A program made the position numbers and the translations under genes. A model generated the notes under the pieces. The model was not told where the DNA came from. It made no database searches and saw nothing but the letters and a program-made list of their open reading frames with translations. Shown piece by piece: positions 2,676 to 5,423 of a DNA stretch of 64,000 nucleotides; the first letter of the stretch is position 1; each line of letters opens with the position of its first letter. This DNA comes from Candidatus Levyibacteriota bacterium (GTDB lineage Bacteria; Patescibacteriota; Microgenomatia; Levybacterales; UBA12049). The DNA lies in the NCBI GenBank assembly GCA_049519175.1, contig JBEKQZ010000002.1:6782-70781 (forward strand). The letters run 5' to 3'.

Positions 2676-2726
2676 ATTTTAGAAAGGAGGTGATCCATCC
2701 CCACCTTCGGGTAGGGATACCTTGTT

Positions 2727-2937
2727 CATATTGTTCCACCTATTACTAGGGGTATGGACTATATCTTCATCCTTAAAAAATGACTTTTAAGGCGTCAACG
2801 TTTAGTCTCTACGGGGTCAATCCGTTAAAAACGGACGACTTCCCTCGGTATTGTCCCTTGATAATTATATCAAGTAGGAGTTCACCGATACAGTTGAGGT
2901 TTTCTATGCCGTTACCGACATAGGTCGCAACATTTAT
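2727..2937 (-). other. 16S rRNA intron 1 (~211 nt, no ORF) inserted between ...AAGTCGTA and ACAAGGTA... (E. coli ~1506 region)
   Basis: Conserved flanks ccttgtt|...|acgactt on the plus strand. The intervening 211 nt have no rRNA counterpart. Confidence 0.6.
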
Positions 2938-3024
2938 ACGACTTAAGCCTTATCGCCGATCTTTATCTCTCCCGACAGAATCGAAATTCGATAATTACCG
3001 ACTTTACTGCCTTGACGGGCGGAT

Positions 3025-3870
3025 TGGGATAAATGAAAGTTTTTTCCCGTTCCCACCCGGCGAGCGGATTTCCCGCACCGGGCGAGCCCTAATGATGCAT
3101 AGATAATTTTAATTGTCTGATTATATCTATTCCCTTTTGATTAAAATGATCTTTATTAATAATCATTTTAGTGACTTGAGAAAAAATCTCAAAATCACGT
3201 TGTTTTTTTGGGCTTTGAAGAGAATGTTTATTAAAAAAGTCAATCAATTTTAACTTATCTGTATTTGAATTTACTTCAAACCTATAACAAGATGAATGAT
3301 TTTTTCTTGTTTCTTTTTGAAAGTAAATAAAACCGAATTTTAAAAAATCTTTAATTTTCTCTAAAACTAGAAGATCATCTTCACGTAGTTTTATATAAAA
3401 ATGAGATTTTGCCCTTATATGAGCATTTGGATTCTTAGTTTTATCTCTTTCAGTAAGATTGACATAAAAACATCCTTCTCCGTCAGTTAATCCAACAATA
3501 TAATTTGCATCTATCATTAGGTTGTTTCCTTCATCACCGCAGCGGTAATAATTTTACTTTAGAGTAAAATGTTCTACTTGTCAATGATTACTATGAAAAC
3601 AGCTGACTTCTCTTAAAGCAAATGCTTTCTATCCTTAAGAGATCTCCCAAGGTCACTTACGAAACATTTCCAAACATCCTAACTAGATTTTTTCATAGTT
3701 CTTCTCCTAGACACACCGTTAGGATCGAACATCTATTTTTTTGTTAGGCTGCCTTTTGCTTCAGGCCCTCCAGGACATCTGTCACCAGTATTGTCCCTGC
3801 CATATCTTTTTAGCTACAAGAGTGGATTTTAACCACTTTGCTAAGTAAGCTGCTTGGCGCGCATTTATTC
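3025..3870 (-). mobile_element. 16S rRNA intron 2 (~846 nt) carrying a LAGLIDADG homing endonuclease gene; inserted between ACACA and CCGCCCGTC (E. coli ~1397)
   Basis: Plus strand gacgggcgg (3016-3024) and tgtgtacaag (3871-3880) are contiguous in every 16S rRNA but lie 846 nt apart here. The intervening sequence contains ORF 3089-3517. Confidence 0.75.
3089..3517 (-). CDS. LAGLIDADG-family homing endonuclease (intron-encoded)
   Basis: N-terminal motif IVGLTDGEGCFYV is a LAGLIDADG variant. The 142-aa basic protein lies wholly inside the 16S insertion. Confidence 0.8.
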   Translation of the reverse strand: MIDANYIVGLTDGEGCFYVNLTERDKTKNPNAHIRAKSHFYIKLREDDLLVLEKIKDFLKFGFIYFQKETRKNHSSCYRFEVNSNTDKLKLIDFFNKHSLQSPKKQRDFEIFSQVTKMIINKDHFNQKGIDIIRQLKLSMHH

Positions 3871-5423
3871 TGTGTACAAGACCCGAGAACGTATTCACCG
3901 CGGCTTGCTGATCCGCGATTACTACCGATTCCGACTTCATGAGGTCAGGTTGCAGACCTCAATCTGAACTGAGGCGAAATTTAAGGGATTCGCTTGCCAT
4001 TGCTGGCTTGCAGCCCGTTGTTTTTCGCCATTGTAGTGTGTGTGTAGCCCAGGGTATAAGGGCCGTGCTGACTTGACGTCTTCCGCTCCTTCCTTCCCAG
4101 TAAAACTGGGACCGTCTCCAATGAATATTCAACATTGGACGCGGGTTGCGCTCGTTTCCCCACTTAAGGGAACACCTCACGGCACGAGCTGACGACAGCC
4201 ATGCAGCACCTGTGGTACCATCCTTGCGGATTTCTCTCCATTTCTGGAAAAATAAACGGTATCATGTCAAACCCTGGTGAGGTTTTTCGTTTTGTCTCGA
4301 ATTGAACCACACGCTCCACCGGTTGTGCGGGTCCCCGTCAATTCCTTTGAGTTTTAGCCTTGCGGCCGTACTCCCCAGGCGGTCTGCTTAACGTGTTAAC
4401 TTGCGCCTCATCGTTACCGAAAAAGCTAGCAGACATCGTTTACGGCTAGGACTACACAGGTATCTAATCTGTTTCGCTCCCCTAGCTTTCGTGCCTCAGC
4501 GTCAGGAAAATCCCAGATACTTGCCTTCGCCTTTGGTGTTCCAGTTAATATCAACGCATTTCACTGCTACATTAACTGTTCCAGTATCCCTGACAATCCT
4601 CAACATCGAAAGTATCATACCCACTCCCAAGGGTAAGCCTTGGTCTTTAAGGTATGACTTTTCGATGAGCCTACGCACACTTTACGCCCAATGAATCCGG
4701 ATAATGCTTGCATCCTACGTATTACCGAGACTTCTGGCACGTAGTTAGTAGATGCTTATTCTATAAACCGTGAAAGATTTATCAAAAGAAGTTTACGACC
4801 CTAAGGCCTTCTTCCTTCACGCGGCGTCGCTGCGTCAGACTTTCGTCCATTGCGCAATATTCCTAGTTGCTGCCATCCGTAGATGTACTGCCCGTATCTC
4901 AGTGCAGTTGTGGCTGATCGACCTCTCAGTCCAGCTACCCGTCATCGCCTTGGTGGGCTTTTACCCCGCCAACAAGCTGATAGGACGCAGGCTCATCCCT
5001 TGGCGCGAAGTTAATCGCTTTACAATAAATTGATTATGAACTATTACCCCAGCTTTCGCTGAGCTATGGTCCACCTAGGGGTAGATTCCTACGCGTTACT
5101 CACCCGTCTGCCATTTGGTCCTTGCGGACCCCATTCGACTTGCATGCCTAAGGCACGCCGCCAGCATTCATCCTGAACCAGGATCAAATTCTCAAAAAAA
5201 TTGTTCGGATTATCTTTAGGGAATTAATCCGAAAGAATTCCTACCACTTTTTGATCGAGAAGTTGTGACACTTCTTCACAAAAAGCTATCCTTTTCATTT
5301 TGTGCTGTACTTTTAAATTATCAAAGTGCAAAAACTTTTAAGAACCCCTATAAGACCAAAAATCCCGCCAAAGGCGGGGTGCAATCCCAAACTTATGGCG
5401 AAAGGTCTTACATATCTTTTACC

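Follow-up and report, generated by a model that had tools for sequence, protein, structure and literature searches.

A probable group IIC-like LAGLIDADG intron and a small group I intron in the unlinked 16S rRNA gene of a Levybacteria genome

The rns-1396 family of introns in the 16S rRNA gene of Thiomargarita was reportedly described by Salman and colleagues in 2012; Thiomargarita reportedly also has a group I intron designated 'S1495'. In a more recent description (PMC13190283), the family belongs to class IIC, all its members have a 5' linker, and a single-motif LAGLIDADG homing endonuclease (LHE) is encoded in domain IV. This 2026 survey reports the rns-1396 family only in Thiotrichaceae. 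For the Candidate Phyla Radiation (CPR), Tsurumaki et al. (2024, PMC11270868) place group II-like insertions only at 16S position 1400, mostly with LAGLIDADG_1, and group I introns, in many cases encoding LAGLIDADG_2 or LAGLIDADG_3, at site 16IS10. According to the same study, Brown et al. reported that CPR rRNA insertions are removed from transcripts. The site of the larger intron described below is therefore already named in the literature, as 'rns-1396' (PMC13190283) and as '16IS9, position 1400' (PMC11270868).

The window analysed here, a 64-kb (64,000 nt) stretch of a Levyibacteriota metagenome-assembled genome, contained a 16S rRNA gene bearing two insertions of 848 and 211 nt, hereafter introns A and B (Table 1). 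A sequence-only reading of the window had called both insertions introns, estimated a spliced rRNA of approximately 1459 nt and proposed a CPR host. The computed spliced length was 1460 nt, and the spliced sequence aligned end to end with the intron-less metagenomic 16S gene L121 (1423 of 1465 positions identical, 97.1%). In L121 and in a second relative, L185 (95.6% identical), both introns were absent and the 16S gene was contiguous, with the exon junctions exactly as predicted. The LHE protein of intron A was identical to one deposited under Candidatus Levyibacteriota, a phylum within the Patescibacteria/Microgenomates group, and sequence evidence thus places the host among the uncultured Levybacteria of the CPR. 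Landmark residues that we take to be C1400, A1492/1493 and U1498 put the insertion sites after E. coli A1398 and U1498. Numbering by one E. coli rrs copy gives 1396 and 1495 for the same sites, because that copy is 1539 nt long and runs from AAATTG to CCTTA.

The sequence-only reading had further described the gene as unlinked from 23S and 5S, followed by a protein-coding gene and a terminator-like hairpin, and divergent in its 515 region; each of these points was recovered. An Rfam scan detected no 23S or 5S rRNA gene in the whole 64-kb window, and none was present within approximately 8.5 kb downstream of the 16S gene on L082, a longer copy of the same contig. L121 likewise had no 23S gene within approximately 7.4 kb downstream of its 16S gene. 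An SRPBCC-type ORF and a hairpin with a T-run lay downstream of the 16S gene, and a promoter-like site was located approximately 225 nt upstream of its 5' end. The 515 site reads GTGCCAGAAGTCTCGGTAA, the reverse complement of the string given in the sequence-only reading, and the UAC at 4748-4750 is the counterpart of E. coli 505-507. L002 and 48 related metagenomic 16S genes shared this 515 sequence. The divergence thus marks the lineage, and it is accompanied by compensatory changes.

Table 1. Features of the 16S rRNA locus, in window coordinates
Feature	Position	Strand	Basis or remark
Promoter-like site TTGACA-16-TATAAT	5424..5451	-	12/12 matches; consensus scan only
16S rRNA gene	2681..5199	-	Rfam SSU_rRNA_bacteria RF00177, 1251 bits
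16S exons	5199-3871, 3022-2938, 2726-2681	-	Spliced length 1460 nt
Divergent 515 region GUGCCAGAAGUCUCGGUAA	4722..4740	-	Three differences from consensus
Intron A, probable group IIC-like with LAGLIDADG ORF	3023..3870	-	Sequence ruler and intron-less alleles
5' linker of intron A, 8 nt	3863..3870	-	Alignment of relatives
GCGCG, counterpart of group II 5' consensus GUGYG	3858..3862	-	Aligned relatives
Domain I scaffold of intron A	3647..3857	-	Closing helix 3857-3853 with 3651-3647
EBS1 UGUGU of intron A	3711..3715	-	Pairs with last five exon bases ACACA (IBS1)
Domain II hairpin of intron A	3611..3640	-	7-bp stem, compensatory changes at 7/7 pairs
Domain II to domain III-like region, including AGAAGUCAGC...CAUAGUA...GAAGG	3526..3645	-	Conserved across relatives
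Putative single-motif LAGLIDADG_1 homing endonuclease ORF, 142 aa	3089..3517	-	Pfam PF00961, E = 1.4e-17
Domain V of intron A	3053..3085	-	9-bp lower helix, 4-bp upper helix, GAAAU loop
Domain VI of intron A	3026..3048	-	Bulged A at 3030, 7 nt before 3' splice site
Intron B, ORF-less group I intron, 211 nt	2727..2937	-	Inserted after E. coli U1498
Internal guide sequence UGUU-GCGAC of intron B	2924..2931	-	Read from sequence and Rfam alignment
Terminator-like hairpin and T-run	2485-2497	-	Approximately 185 nt past 16S 3' end; consensus scan only
SRPBCC-type ORF	2006-2431	-	Downstream of 16S

Intron A interrupts the gene between TTGTACACA and CCGCCCGTCA. It had been read as 3025-3870 (846 nt); the location stood, and the 3' end had been drawn two bases short. 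Among 80 loci fetched by LHE homology, 70 contained an insertion of 814-922 nt between TTGTAC[A/T]CA and CCGCCCGTCA, mostly in CPR genomes and with a wide, patchy spread over the CPR phyla. Intron A opens with GAAUAAAU rather than GUGYG, and GCGCG is reached only at positions 9-13, where the relatives have GUGCG, AUGCG or UGUGC. The 5' linker was variable in every relative (about 6-9 nt, in some with an inserted hairpin), and the first intron base differed among them. A start other than GUGYG is typical of the rns-1396 family (PMC13190283) and of some fungal rRNA introns (PMC4424553). With a variable first base and no GUGYG, a canonical lariat would be awkward for intron A despite the conserved bulged A.

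The ribozyme structure was conserved across the relatives. In domains I and II, 48 pairs were predicted with RNAalifold from the 70 sequences, 41 of them with compensatory changes. The pair between exon position -3 and the middle base of EBS1 was U-A in 36 sequences, A-U in 24 and G-U in 10, and was unpaired in none (n = 70, alignment-based count); EBS1 thus followed the exon A/U polymorphism without exception, while sliding the partner column by 1-3 positions left 23-56% of cells paired. In domain V, 99.3% of cells were paired across 65 sequences and six pairs showed compensatory changes. The CGC triad (3084-3082, with a G·U wobble) and its partners were invariant. A 2-nt bulge was located at 3063-3062, and the loop across relatives was GAAAN, five nucleotides long and not a strict GNRA tetraloop. 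Domain VI had compensatory changes at 7/7 pairs and an invariant bulged A in the same 65 sequences. Taken together, domains V and VI had 97.3% of cells paired, versus 33-43% with slid partner columns, and 13 of their 21 pairs showed compensatory changes. No domain IV closing stem around the ORF could be defined with confidence; a candidate pairing of GUGAUG with CAUCAU conflicted with the domain III-like stem.

Rfam covariance models did not assign intron A to a class at their own thresholds. RF00029 gave no match at E <= 10, and the best group II model, group-II-D1D4-1 (RF01998), reached 24 bits (E = 0.08) over the domain II to domain III-like region, where its gathering score is 35. The group II models gave no match on 15 relatives either. 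The class was therefore judged by comparative structure. Group I was rejected for intron A: RF00028 gave no match at E <= 10, and with A as the last base of the 5' exon and U as that of the intron there is neither a U·G pair nor a terminal G. Intron A has the domain V, the domain VI with bulged A, the AY end (...AAU) and the EBS1-IBS1 pairing of a group II intron. With the rns-1396 and CPR 16IS9 introns it shares insertion between A1398 and C1399, a single-motif LAGLIDADG_1 ORF before domain V and the 5' linker. Its approximately 419 non-coding nucleotides and its CGC triad would fit IIC, CGC being an accepted variant of the domain V triad (PMC4424553). The GG at 3716-3717, beside EBS1, could pair in an IIA-like manner (delta-delta') with the complementary CC that opens the 3' exon, but it is invariant. 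The habit of IIC introns of inserting after a terminator hairpin or attC was not seen, as the site is internal to the 16S gene and no such hairpin precedes it in the exon. The subclass itself is disputed: a 2015 review puts all LHE-bearing group II introns in IIB1 (PMC4424553), and the 2026 study puts the rns-1396 family in IIC (PMC13190283). Within the overall explanation favoured here, intron A is very probably a group IIC-like ribozyme of the rns-1396 / 16IS9 family.

The ORF of 142 aa noticed in the sequence-only reading as LAGLIDADG matched LAGLIDADG_1 and lay after the domain III-like region and before domain V. Its motif and acidic residue qualify it as a putative single-domain LAGLIDADG homing endonuclease. 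D12, G13, E14 and G15 were invariant in 23 homologs, and dN/dS was 0.04-0.16 against seven relatives, indicating purifying selection. The protein matched each half of enzymes of the I-OnuI and I-AabMI type (PDB), and relatives were encoded by 326 of the species-level genomes scanned. The characterised CPR enzyme, I-ShaI, was rejected as a characterised homolog: its source is a group I intron in 23S, and it belongs to a different family.

Intron B was recovered with exactly the extent read from sequence alone, and the covariance-model check suggested for it gave a full-length group I match above the gathering score (RF00028, 57.8 bits vs 50, E = 4.6e-12). Under group I rules the intron splits GTCGT from AACAAGG; the earlier placement between GTCGTA and ACAAGG is an equivalent reading, since the junction is ambiguous by one base. 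P1 is formed by GCGAC and the 5' exon GUCGU and puts a U·G pair at the splice site; P10 is formed by UGUU and the 3' exon AACA. The intron ends ...AUAUG, with the terminal G that group I requires. GTTGCGAC was conserved in the site-1498 introns of relatives, and five insertions at this site in relatives also passed the RF00028 gathering score. Intron B was absent from most relatives, as from L121 and L185. Its ribozyme core was 89% identical to that of L111, in which the P8 loop holds a 487-nt insertion encoding LAGLIDADG_3. By this comparison intron B is an ORF-less derivative of relatives of approximately 700 nt with a LAGLIDADG_3 gene in P8. Having lost that gene, it may still splice and would no longer home by itself.

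These observations fit a single explanation that we consider highly likely: a CPR Levybacteria 16S gene, unlinked to 23S, carries a group IIC-like LAGLIDADG intron and a small group I intron, both optional, mobile, of self-splicing type and situated in the decoding-centre region. In intron A, the EBS1 loop UGUGU would pair with ACACA, the last five bases of exon 1, and so set the 5' splice site, which lies 8 nt ahead of the GUGYG-like motif. The catalytic centre would be provided by domain V with its CGC triad, and domain VI would present the bulged A, located 7 nt before the intron's 3' end (AU), for a first step by either branching or hydrolysis. Joining of the exons would restore UUGUACACA-CCGCCCGUCA. 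In place of a reverse transcriptase, intron A encodes the predicted single-motif LAGLIDADG endonuclease, which would presumably act as a homodimer and cut intron-less 16S alleles at the insertion site, repair then copying the intron in (DNA homing). In intron B, the guide UGUU-GCGAC would align both exons through P10 and P1, and splicing initiated by guanosine would end at the terminal G.

Several other readings of the insertions were weighed against this explanation. Insertion A might be an intervening sequence cut by host RNases (RNase III) without religation, so that the 16S rRNA functions in fragments and the ribozyme features are relics. Bacterial 23S genes are known to contain such unligated sequences, which are also suspected for some CPR insertions (PMC11270868); the sub-threshold Rfam scores and the non-canonical 5' end of intron A point the same way. 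Relics, however, would not retain an invariant CGC triad and bulged A, the compensatory pairs counted above in domains V/VI (13/21) and I/II (41/48), or an EBS1 that changes in step with the exon. Cleavage of the decoding centre between A1398 and C1399 would to our knowledge have no precedent, and we regard RNase excision as improbable. Alternatively, intron A might splice only with the help of a protein, be it a host factor or the LAGLIDADG protein serving as a maturase, and the ORF would then be kept for splicing and not for mobility; this reading is unlikely but carries some weight. The strong purifying selection on the ORF, the small ribozyme and the non-canonical 5' end are in its favour, as is the statement in PMC11270868 that some LAGLIDADG proteins act as maturases. 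Against it, splicing was not promoted by the single group II-encoded LAGLIDADG protein tested so far (PMC4424553), no variation is seen in the catalytic acidic residues of the endonuclease motif, and the wide, patchy spread over CPR phyla fits active homing.

Retention of the insertions in mature rRNA as expansion segments seems very improbable. CPR rRNAs do deviate in length from the standard bacterial model (PMC11270868), but both sites lie within universally conserved single-stranded decoding-centre sequence, and a 97%-identical relative lacks both insertions. One of the two scores above the group I threshold and has the splice-site signatures of such a ribozyme, a protein gene lies in the other, and such insertions are reported to be removed from transcripts (PMC11270868). 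An assembly chimera, with intron-like sequence from elsewhere joined into the 16S gene, is scarcely credible, although 16S genes are notoriously prone to misassembly in metagenomes. Both junctions were reproduced by three independent assemblies (two from ENA, one from Logan) that differed in pipeline and sample and were 99.9-100% identical across them, so that the misassembly signature named in the sequence-only reading as grounds for rejection was not indicated. Moreover, 70 other genomes had homologous insertions at the same base, and EBS1 of intron A matches its own flanking exon.

Under the preferred explanation, that of two optional self-splicing-type introns, the intron-bearing and intron-less alleles (97% identical) form a matched natural series for following the cycle in which homing endonucleases are gained and decay, in bacteria with a single rRNA gene copy; intron B adds ORF-bearing and ORF-less versions to it. 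The lineage will escape amplicon surveys through its three 515F mismatches and through introns within the 1392R and 1492R primer sites. For annotation, the 848-nt insertion is best recorded as a probable group II (IIC-like) LAGLIDADG intron and not as group I; standard Rfam thresholds miss such copies, and a covariance model of the family could be started from the 70-member alignments, which include EBS1-exon covariation and show no change in the CGC triad or branch A. More speculatively, the CPR introns at site 1398 might form one very large, old family whose EBS co-evolved with a 16S change and which possibly represents a distinct splicing variant; we give this only a small chance. In the aligned members, a 5' splice site that lies ahead of GUGYG (by 8 nt here, variable in relatives) occurs together with an invariant branch-point A; in fungal rRNA introns such a displacement is usually accompanied by loss of the branch A. 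The exon difference between lineages, ACACA versus ACUCA, is matched by the exon-binding site. Were it true, either branching onto a variable, non-G first nucleotide or another use of the conserved A would constitute the distinct variant, and LAGLIDADG-bearing group II introns would have their main reservoir among bacteria in the CPR, not in the Thiotrichaceae.

Intron A can be compared with several known systems, of which 16IS9 is in the same host clade. The 16IS9 introns of PMC11270868 share with intron A the host clade, the site, a single-domain LAGLIDADG_1 ORF and the lack of a reverse transcriptase, and nothing substantive differs. The 16IS9 introns were classed there by Rfam models, whereas intron A, below the gathering scores, was classed by domain V/VI, domain I and EBS1 covariation. 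The rns-1396 introns of Thiomargarita (Liu et al. 2026, PMC13190283) have the same site, an LHE before domain V and a 5' linker, and they also share IBS1 recognition with no obvious EBS2; compared by description only, they differ from intron A in host, which is Thiotrichaceae rather than CPR. Fungal mitochondrial IIB1 introns (Toor & Zimmerly 2002; Li et al. 2011; PMC4424553) likewise combine a group II ribozyme and a LAGLIDADG ORF in rRNA. They splice upstream of GUGYG and have 5'-terminal insertions, a displacement also found in intron A, and the intron A protein resembles the fungal I-OnuI type. In contrast, many fungal introns have lost the branch-point A (PMC4424553), which is invariant in the intron A family, and intron A has CGC instead of AGC, a much smaller ribozyme and a single-motif ORF. 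The intron C.te.I1 of Clostridium tetani splices 8 nt upstream of GUGYG (PMC4424553), the length of the intron A linker. Unlike intron A, it is of the retroelement type, lies in a protein-coding context outside rRNA and has no LAGLIDADG ORF.

Intron B resembles the 16IS10 introns in being group I and close to the 16S 3' end, and its close relatives carry LAGLIDADG_3; it differs in being ORF-less, at 211 nt. 16IS10 is probably the U1498 site; as the last numbered site (PMC11270868) it probably lies 3' of position 1400. RNase III-processed 23S intervening sequences are likewise optional rRNA insertions in small-genome bacteria, but they are short hairpins without a ribozyme core or exon-binding site and are not religated, and neither insertion described here is like them. 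The combination of group II ribozyme and LAGLIDADG gene is unusual in general but has already been reported at this site in CPR and Thiomargarita. The locus is a clean but ordinary example, both of its intron families having already been described for CPR.

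The 16S rRNA gene in the window was full-length and bacterial (minus strand, 1251 bits with Rfam), and its conserved sequence was interrupted at two points. With exon edges at 3871 and 3022, the first insertion (intron A) spanned 3870..3023, or 848 nt. A sequence-only reading had recognized this insertion but set its 3' boundary two bases short (3025-3870, 846 nt). The same reading's coordinates for the second insertion (intron B, 2727-2937, 211 nt) were confirmed, and 1460 nt remained after computational removal of both, against the ~1459 nt it had predicted. The predicted ligated exon junctions were UUGUACACA-CCGCCCGUCA at the intron A site and AAGUCGU-AACAAGGUA at the intron B site. 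In an alignment to one E. coli rrs copy (1539 nt), the break points fell after 1396 and 1495. Based on the landmark residues C1400, A1492/1493 and U1498, we took them to lie between A1398 and C1399 and between U1498 and A1499, both within the decoding-centre region.

Features of the interrupted 16S rRNA gene and its surroundings (window positions)
Feature	Position	Strand	Remarks
16S rRNA gene	5' start 5199, 3' end ~2681	-	3' end with GGAUCACCUCCUUUCU; Rfam and sequence read
First break (intron A)	last exon base 3871, exon restarts at 3022	-	after CTTGTACACA; restarts CCGCCCGTCA
Second break (intron B)	2937..2727	-	211 nt
5' linker	5' end of intron A	-	8 nt, GAAUAAAU, then GCGCG, aligned with GUGCG/AUGCG in relatives
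Domain I closing helix	3857-3853 with 3651-3647	-	70-sequence consensus
EBS1 loop	3715..3711	-	UGUGU, complementary to ACACA, the exon's last five bases
Domain II hairpin	3640..3611	-	70-sequence consensus
LAGLIDADG ORF	3517..3089	-	142 aa, one LAGLIDADG_1 domain, E = 1.4e-17
Domain V hairpin	3085..3053	-	fold of 3' end, 65-sequence alignment
Domain VI	3048..3026	-	invariant bulged A 3030, 7 nt before AU 3' end
Divergent 515 region	4740..4722	-	GUGCCAGAAGUCUCGGUAA vs consensus GUGCCAGCAGCCGCGGUAA
SRPBCC-type ORF	2431..2006	-	downstream neighbour of 16S
Terminator-like hairpin	2497..2485	-	consensus match only
Terminator-like hairpin	5378..5364	-	G+C-rich with T-run; consensus match only
Promoter-like TTGACA-16-TATAAT	5451..5424	-	perfect; consensus match only
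151-aa ORF	5474-5929	-	strongly acidic, Ala/Glu-rich; gene called on L082 too

Two alternatives to introns were considered, misassembly and an expansion segment kept in the mature rRNA. Eight contigs on record encoded the identical endonuclease, and three assemblies of the same locus produced by different pipelines (L082 and L084 from ENA, L083 from Logan) matched the window over the intron region with 100%, 99.9% and 100% identity. Samples containing this genome include ERZ27250144 and SRR7028199. When metagenome contigs were searched for the predicted spliced junction, an intron-less allele (L121) was recovered. Its 16S rRNA gene was a complete SSU (1357 bits with Rfam) of 1465 nt without interruption, agreed at 1423 of 1465 positions with the window gene after in silico removal of its introns, and read GGGTCTTGTACACACCGCCCGTCAAGGCAG and GGCTTAAGTCGTAACAAGGTATCCC at the junctions. 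A further allele (L185, 95.6% identical) was likewise uninterrupted at both sites. Thus neither insertion is obligatory, and both have exactly the boundaries inferred. To the extent that DNA can, these data ruled out misassembly as well as retention as an expansion segment. The 16S rRNA gene with two insertions is real, and the contiguous L121 gene with its predicted junctions supported the earlier two-intron interpretation.

Covariance models, proposed earlier as a check, identified intron B as group I. The Rfam model Intron_gpI matched 2947..2736 over its full length with 57.8 bits (gathering score 50; E = 4.6e-12 for the whole window). P1 consisted of GCGAC (2928..2924) with the 5' exon GUCGU, placing a U·G pair at the splice site, and the UGUU beside GCGAC can form P10 with AACA, the first bases of the 3' exon. 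The last intron base was G (2727), in keeping with the group I splice-site rules. Among 193 related 16S genes the U1498 site was empty in 163 and occupied in 30. Insertions of relatives at this site shared the guide sequence GTTGCGAC and a covarying P9 hairpin (e.g. CCUA-GUAA-UAGG, UCCA-GUAA-UGGA, CUCA-GUAA-UGAG), and five scored above the Rfam threshold. The 692-nt intron of one relative (L111), whose ribozyme core was 89% identical to intron B, held 487 additional bases in the P8 loop encoding a LAGLIDADG_3 protein of 170 aa. By comparison with this ORF-bearing intron, intron B is a homing intron without its ORF; splicing should be retained, predicted to follow the standard guanosine-initiated group I route, but the intron lacks its own means of spreading. 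In the Levybacteria relative L002 (positions 868-2695), the insertion at U1498 measured 872 nt. The L002 16S rRNA gene contained two more insertions (~145 and 160 nt, 5' and central), both absent from the window gene, so insertion load differs widely between close relatives.

For intron A the same check yielded nothing for group I at E <= 10, and the lone Rfam signal, group-II-D1D4-1, was below threshold (24 vs 35 bits, E = 0.08). Relatives of its endonuclease were encoded in 326 of the species-level genomes scanned. Eighty of these loci were fetched, the named ones mostly from the Candidate Phyla Radiation (CPR), and in 70/80 the ORF lay inside an 814-922-nt insertion between TTGTAC[A/T]CA and CCGCCCGTCA. 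As judged from their alignment, these insertions have group II anatomy. The lower helix of domain V comprised 9 bp with an invariant CGC triad, its G opposite an invariant U (65 sequences), followed by a 2-nt bulge on the 3' strand and an upper helix of 4 bp. Domain V/VI cells were paired in 97.3% of cases, compared with 33-43% when partner columns were slid by 1-3 positions (65 sequences), and 13 of the 21 pairs showed changes on both sides. The 5' part contained 48 consensus pairs, 41 of them with compensatory changes (70 sequences). In many Parcubacteria-type relatives the exon read ACUCA and the EBS1 loop UGAGU or UGGGU; the covarying pair was U-A in 36, A-U in 24 and G-U in 10 of 70 sequences, and unpaired in none. 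This covariation identifies the UGUGU/ACACA pairing as the predicted EBS1-IBS1 interaction, which is defining for group II exon recognition. The motif GUGYG was absent from the start of intron A. The 5' linker varied in sequence across relatives and contained a hairpin in some.

Several relatives departed from this layout. In L003, L004, L006, L009, L018, L056 and L060 the linker was enlarged by a small hairpin such as AUCCUAUAGCAAUAGGAU (alignment columns 7-60), so it tolerates large insertions. The site-1398 introns of L011, L047, L050, L061, L064 and L079 had an additional structured insertion of ~40-60 nt in the domain V/VI interval. The 3' exon apparently read UCGCCCG rather than CCGCCCG in L013, L020, L029, L031, L036, L041 and L044, which in these seven relatives would appear to be a C1399U change. 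In six of the seven, and in L070 with its usual CCG 3' exon, the 3' end of EBS1 was C/G instead of U and so no longer paired with exon position -5 (seven unpaired cells).

The LAGLIDADG ORF of the sequence-only reading was borne out by its domain match. This homing endonuclease (LHE) ORF lay between a domain III-like region and domain V, with its UAG stop three bases short of the latter; no reverse transcriptase was found in intron A. Purifying selection on the ORF is strong, with dN/dS values of 0.04-0.16 against seven relatives. The D-G-E-G residues, invariant in the LAGLIDADG motif, were kept, and the protein resembled each half of the two-domain enzymes I-OnuI and I-AabMI. In many relatives (L010, L012, L014, L016, L018, L021, L023, L026, L038, L039, L055, L058, L059, L075 and others) the ORF extended across domains V and VI, where it encoded C-terminal tails (e.g. 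...RSPGGNAK), and L014, L018 and L023 had no stop within the intron. A promoter-like TTGACA-17-TAAAGT (3556-3584, minus strand, consensus match only) preceded the window ORF by ~40 nt, and a purine-rich GAAGGA (3524-3530, minus strand) lay ~10 nt ahead of its ATG. These elements could allow LHE expression independent of the rRNA precursor.

The divergent 515 site noted earlier carried C522A, C525U and G527U (E. coli numbering). Through C522A and G527U, C522-G527, which is paired in Rfam's consensus structure, becomes A-U. C525U was accompanied by G506A (UAC vs consensus GGC at 505-507), which kept the 506-525 pair, part of the 505-507/524-526 pseudoknot; U505 and C526 were still mismatched. 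The identical sequence occurred in L002 and in 48 of the metagenomic 16S genes that the junction scan recovered, so the variant is a lineage signature and not an error. Other CPR clades had different variants at these positions.

The identical LHE protein is deposited under 'MAG: Candidatus Levyibacteriota bacterium', a phylum in the Microgenomates/Patescibacteria (CPR) group, in agreement with the CPR host proposed earlier. Several contigs with CPR-type 16S and the site-1398 intron were titled 'uncultured Gammaproteobacteria' ('binchicken' MAGs) and one Nevskiaceae (L003-L006, L008, L016, L039, L055, L056, L072), titles that look like placeholder or mis-binned taxonomy. An Rfam scan found no 23S or 5S genes in the 64-kb window. 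The 8.5 kb 3' of 16S on L082 held protein genes and two tRNAs only, without 23S. With protein genes as neighbours, the 16S rRNA gene is thus unlinked to 23S, as the sequence-only reading had it. The 7.4 kb downstream of 16S on the intron-less L121 also lacked 23S. An Rfam scan of 15 relatives showed 16S, two tRNAs and 23S linked in L038 alone (titled Omnitrophota); the others had no 23S in the sequence 3' of 16S, up to ~2.8 kb. The protein gene and terminator-like hairpin previously placed downstream of the window 16S were recovered, the former as an SRPBCC-type ORF, together with two glycosyltransferases of family 2, of which one lay on the opposite strand. Ahead of the 16S gene the order was odd: the promoter-like element, a terminator-like hairpin ~45 nt past it, then the rRNA. 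This hairpin may terminate transcription of the upstream ORF, or it may act as a leader element. The 151-aa ORF had no match in a Pfam search, and its composition differed from the A+T-rich genes nearby.

In the proposed mechanism, EBS1-IBS1 pairing would fix the 5' splice site of intron A and domain V would supply the metal-binding catalytic centre. Because the first intron base varies, the nucleophile of the first step could be water as well as the conserved bulged A. The second step would ligate the exons, regenerating the universal UUGUACACACCGCCCGUCA. Removal of CPR rRNA insertions from transcripts has been reported (PMC11270868). The LHE most likely cuts alleles lacking the intron as a homodimer, a mode of action shown for other single-domain enzymes; its cut would be expected to leave a 4-nt 3' overhang close to the insertion point.

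Insertions were reported in 48% of CPR 16S genes by Tsurumaki et al. 2024, including 53 group II-like insertions found only at position 1400 ('16IS9'), 39 of them with LAGLIDADG endonucleases and without reverse transcriptase; group I introns occupied several sites, '16IS10' among them, and frequently encoded LAGLIDADG_2 or LAGLIDADG_3 (PMC11270868). The features of introns A and B are already described at family level. Added here are the corrected boundary, the typing as group I and group IIC-like with an LHE, the intron-less alleles and the relatives of intron B that carry an ORF. Specialists may take interest in the coexistence, throughout the CPR family, of a displaced 5' splice site with an invariant branch-point A. 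An older review assigned all LHE-bearing group II introns to IIB1 (PMC4424553). The bacterial 'rns-1396' family of Liu et al. 2026, first seen in Thiomargarita and reported only from Thiotrichaceae, is built on a IIC backbone whose domain IV encodes an LHE with one motif; every member has a 5' linker, IBS1 and IBS3 are conserved, and EBS2 is lacking (PMC13190283). Likened to it by description, intron A fits in its CGC triad, ~419-nt ribozyme and other features, making IIC its probable subclass.
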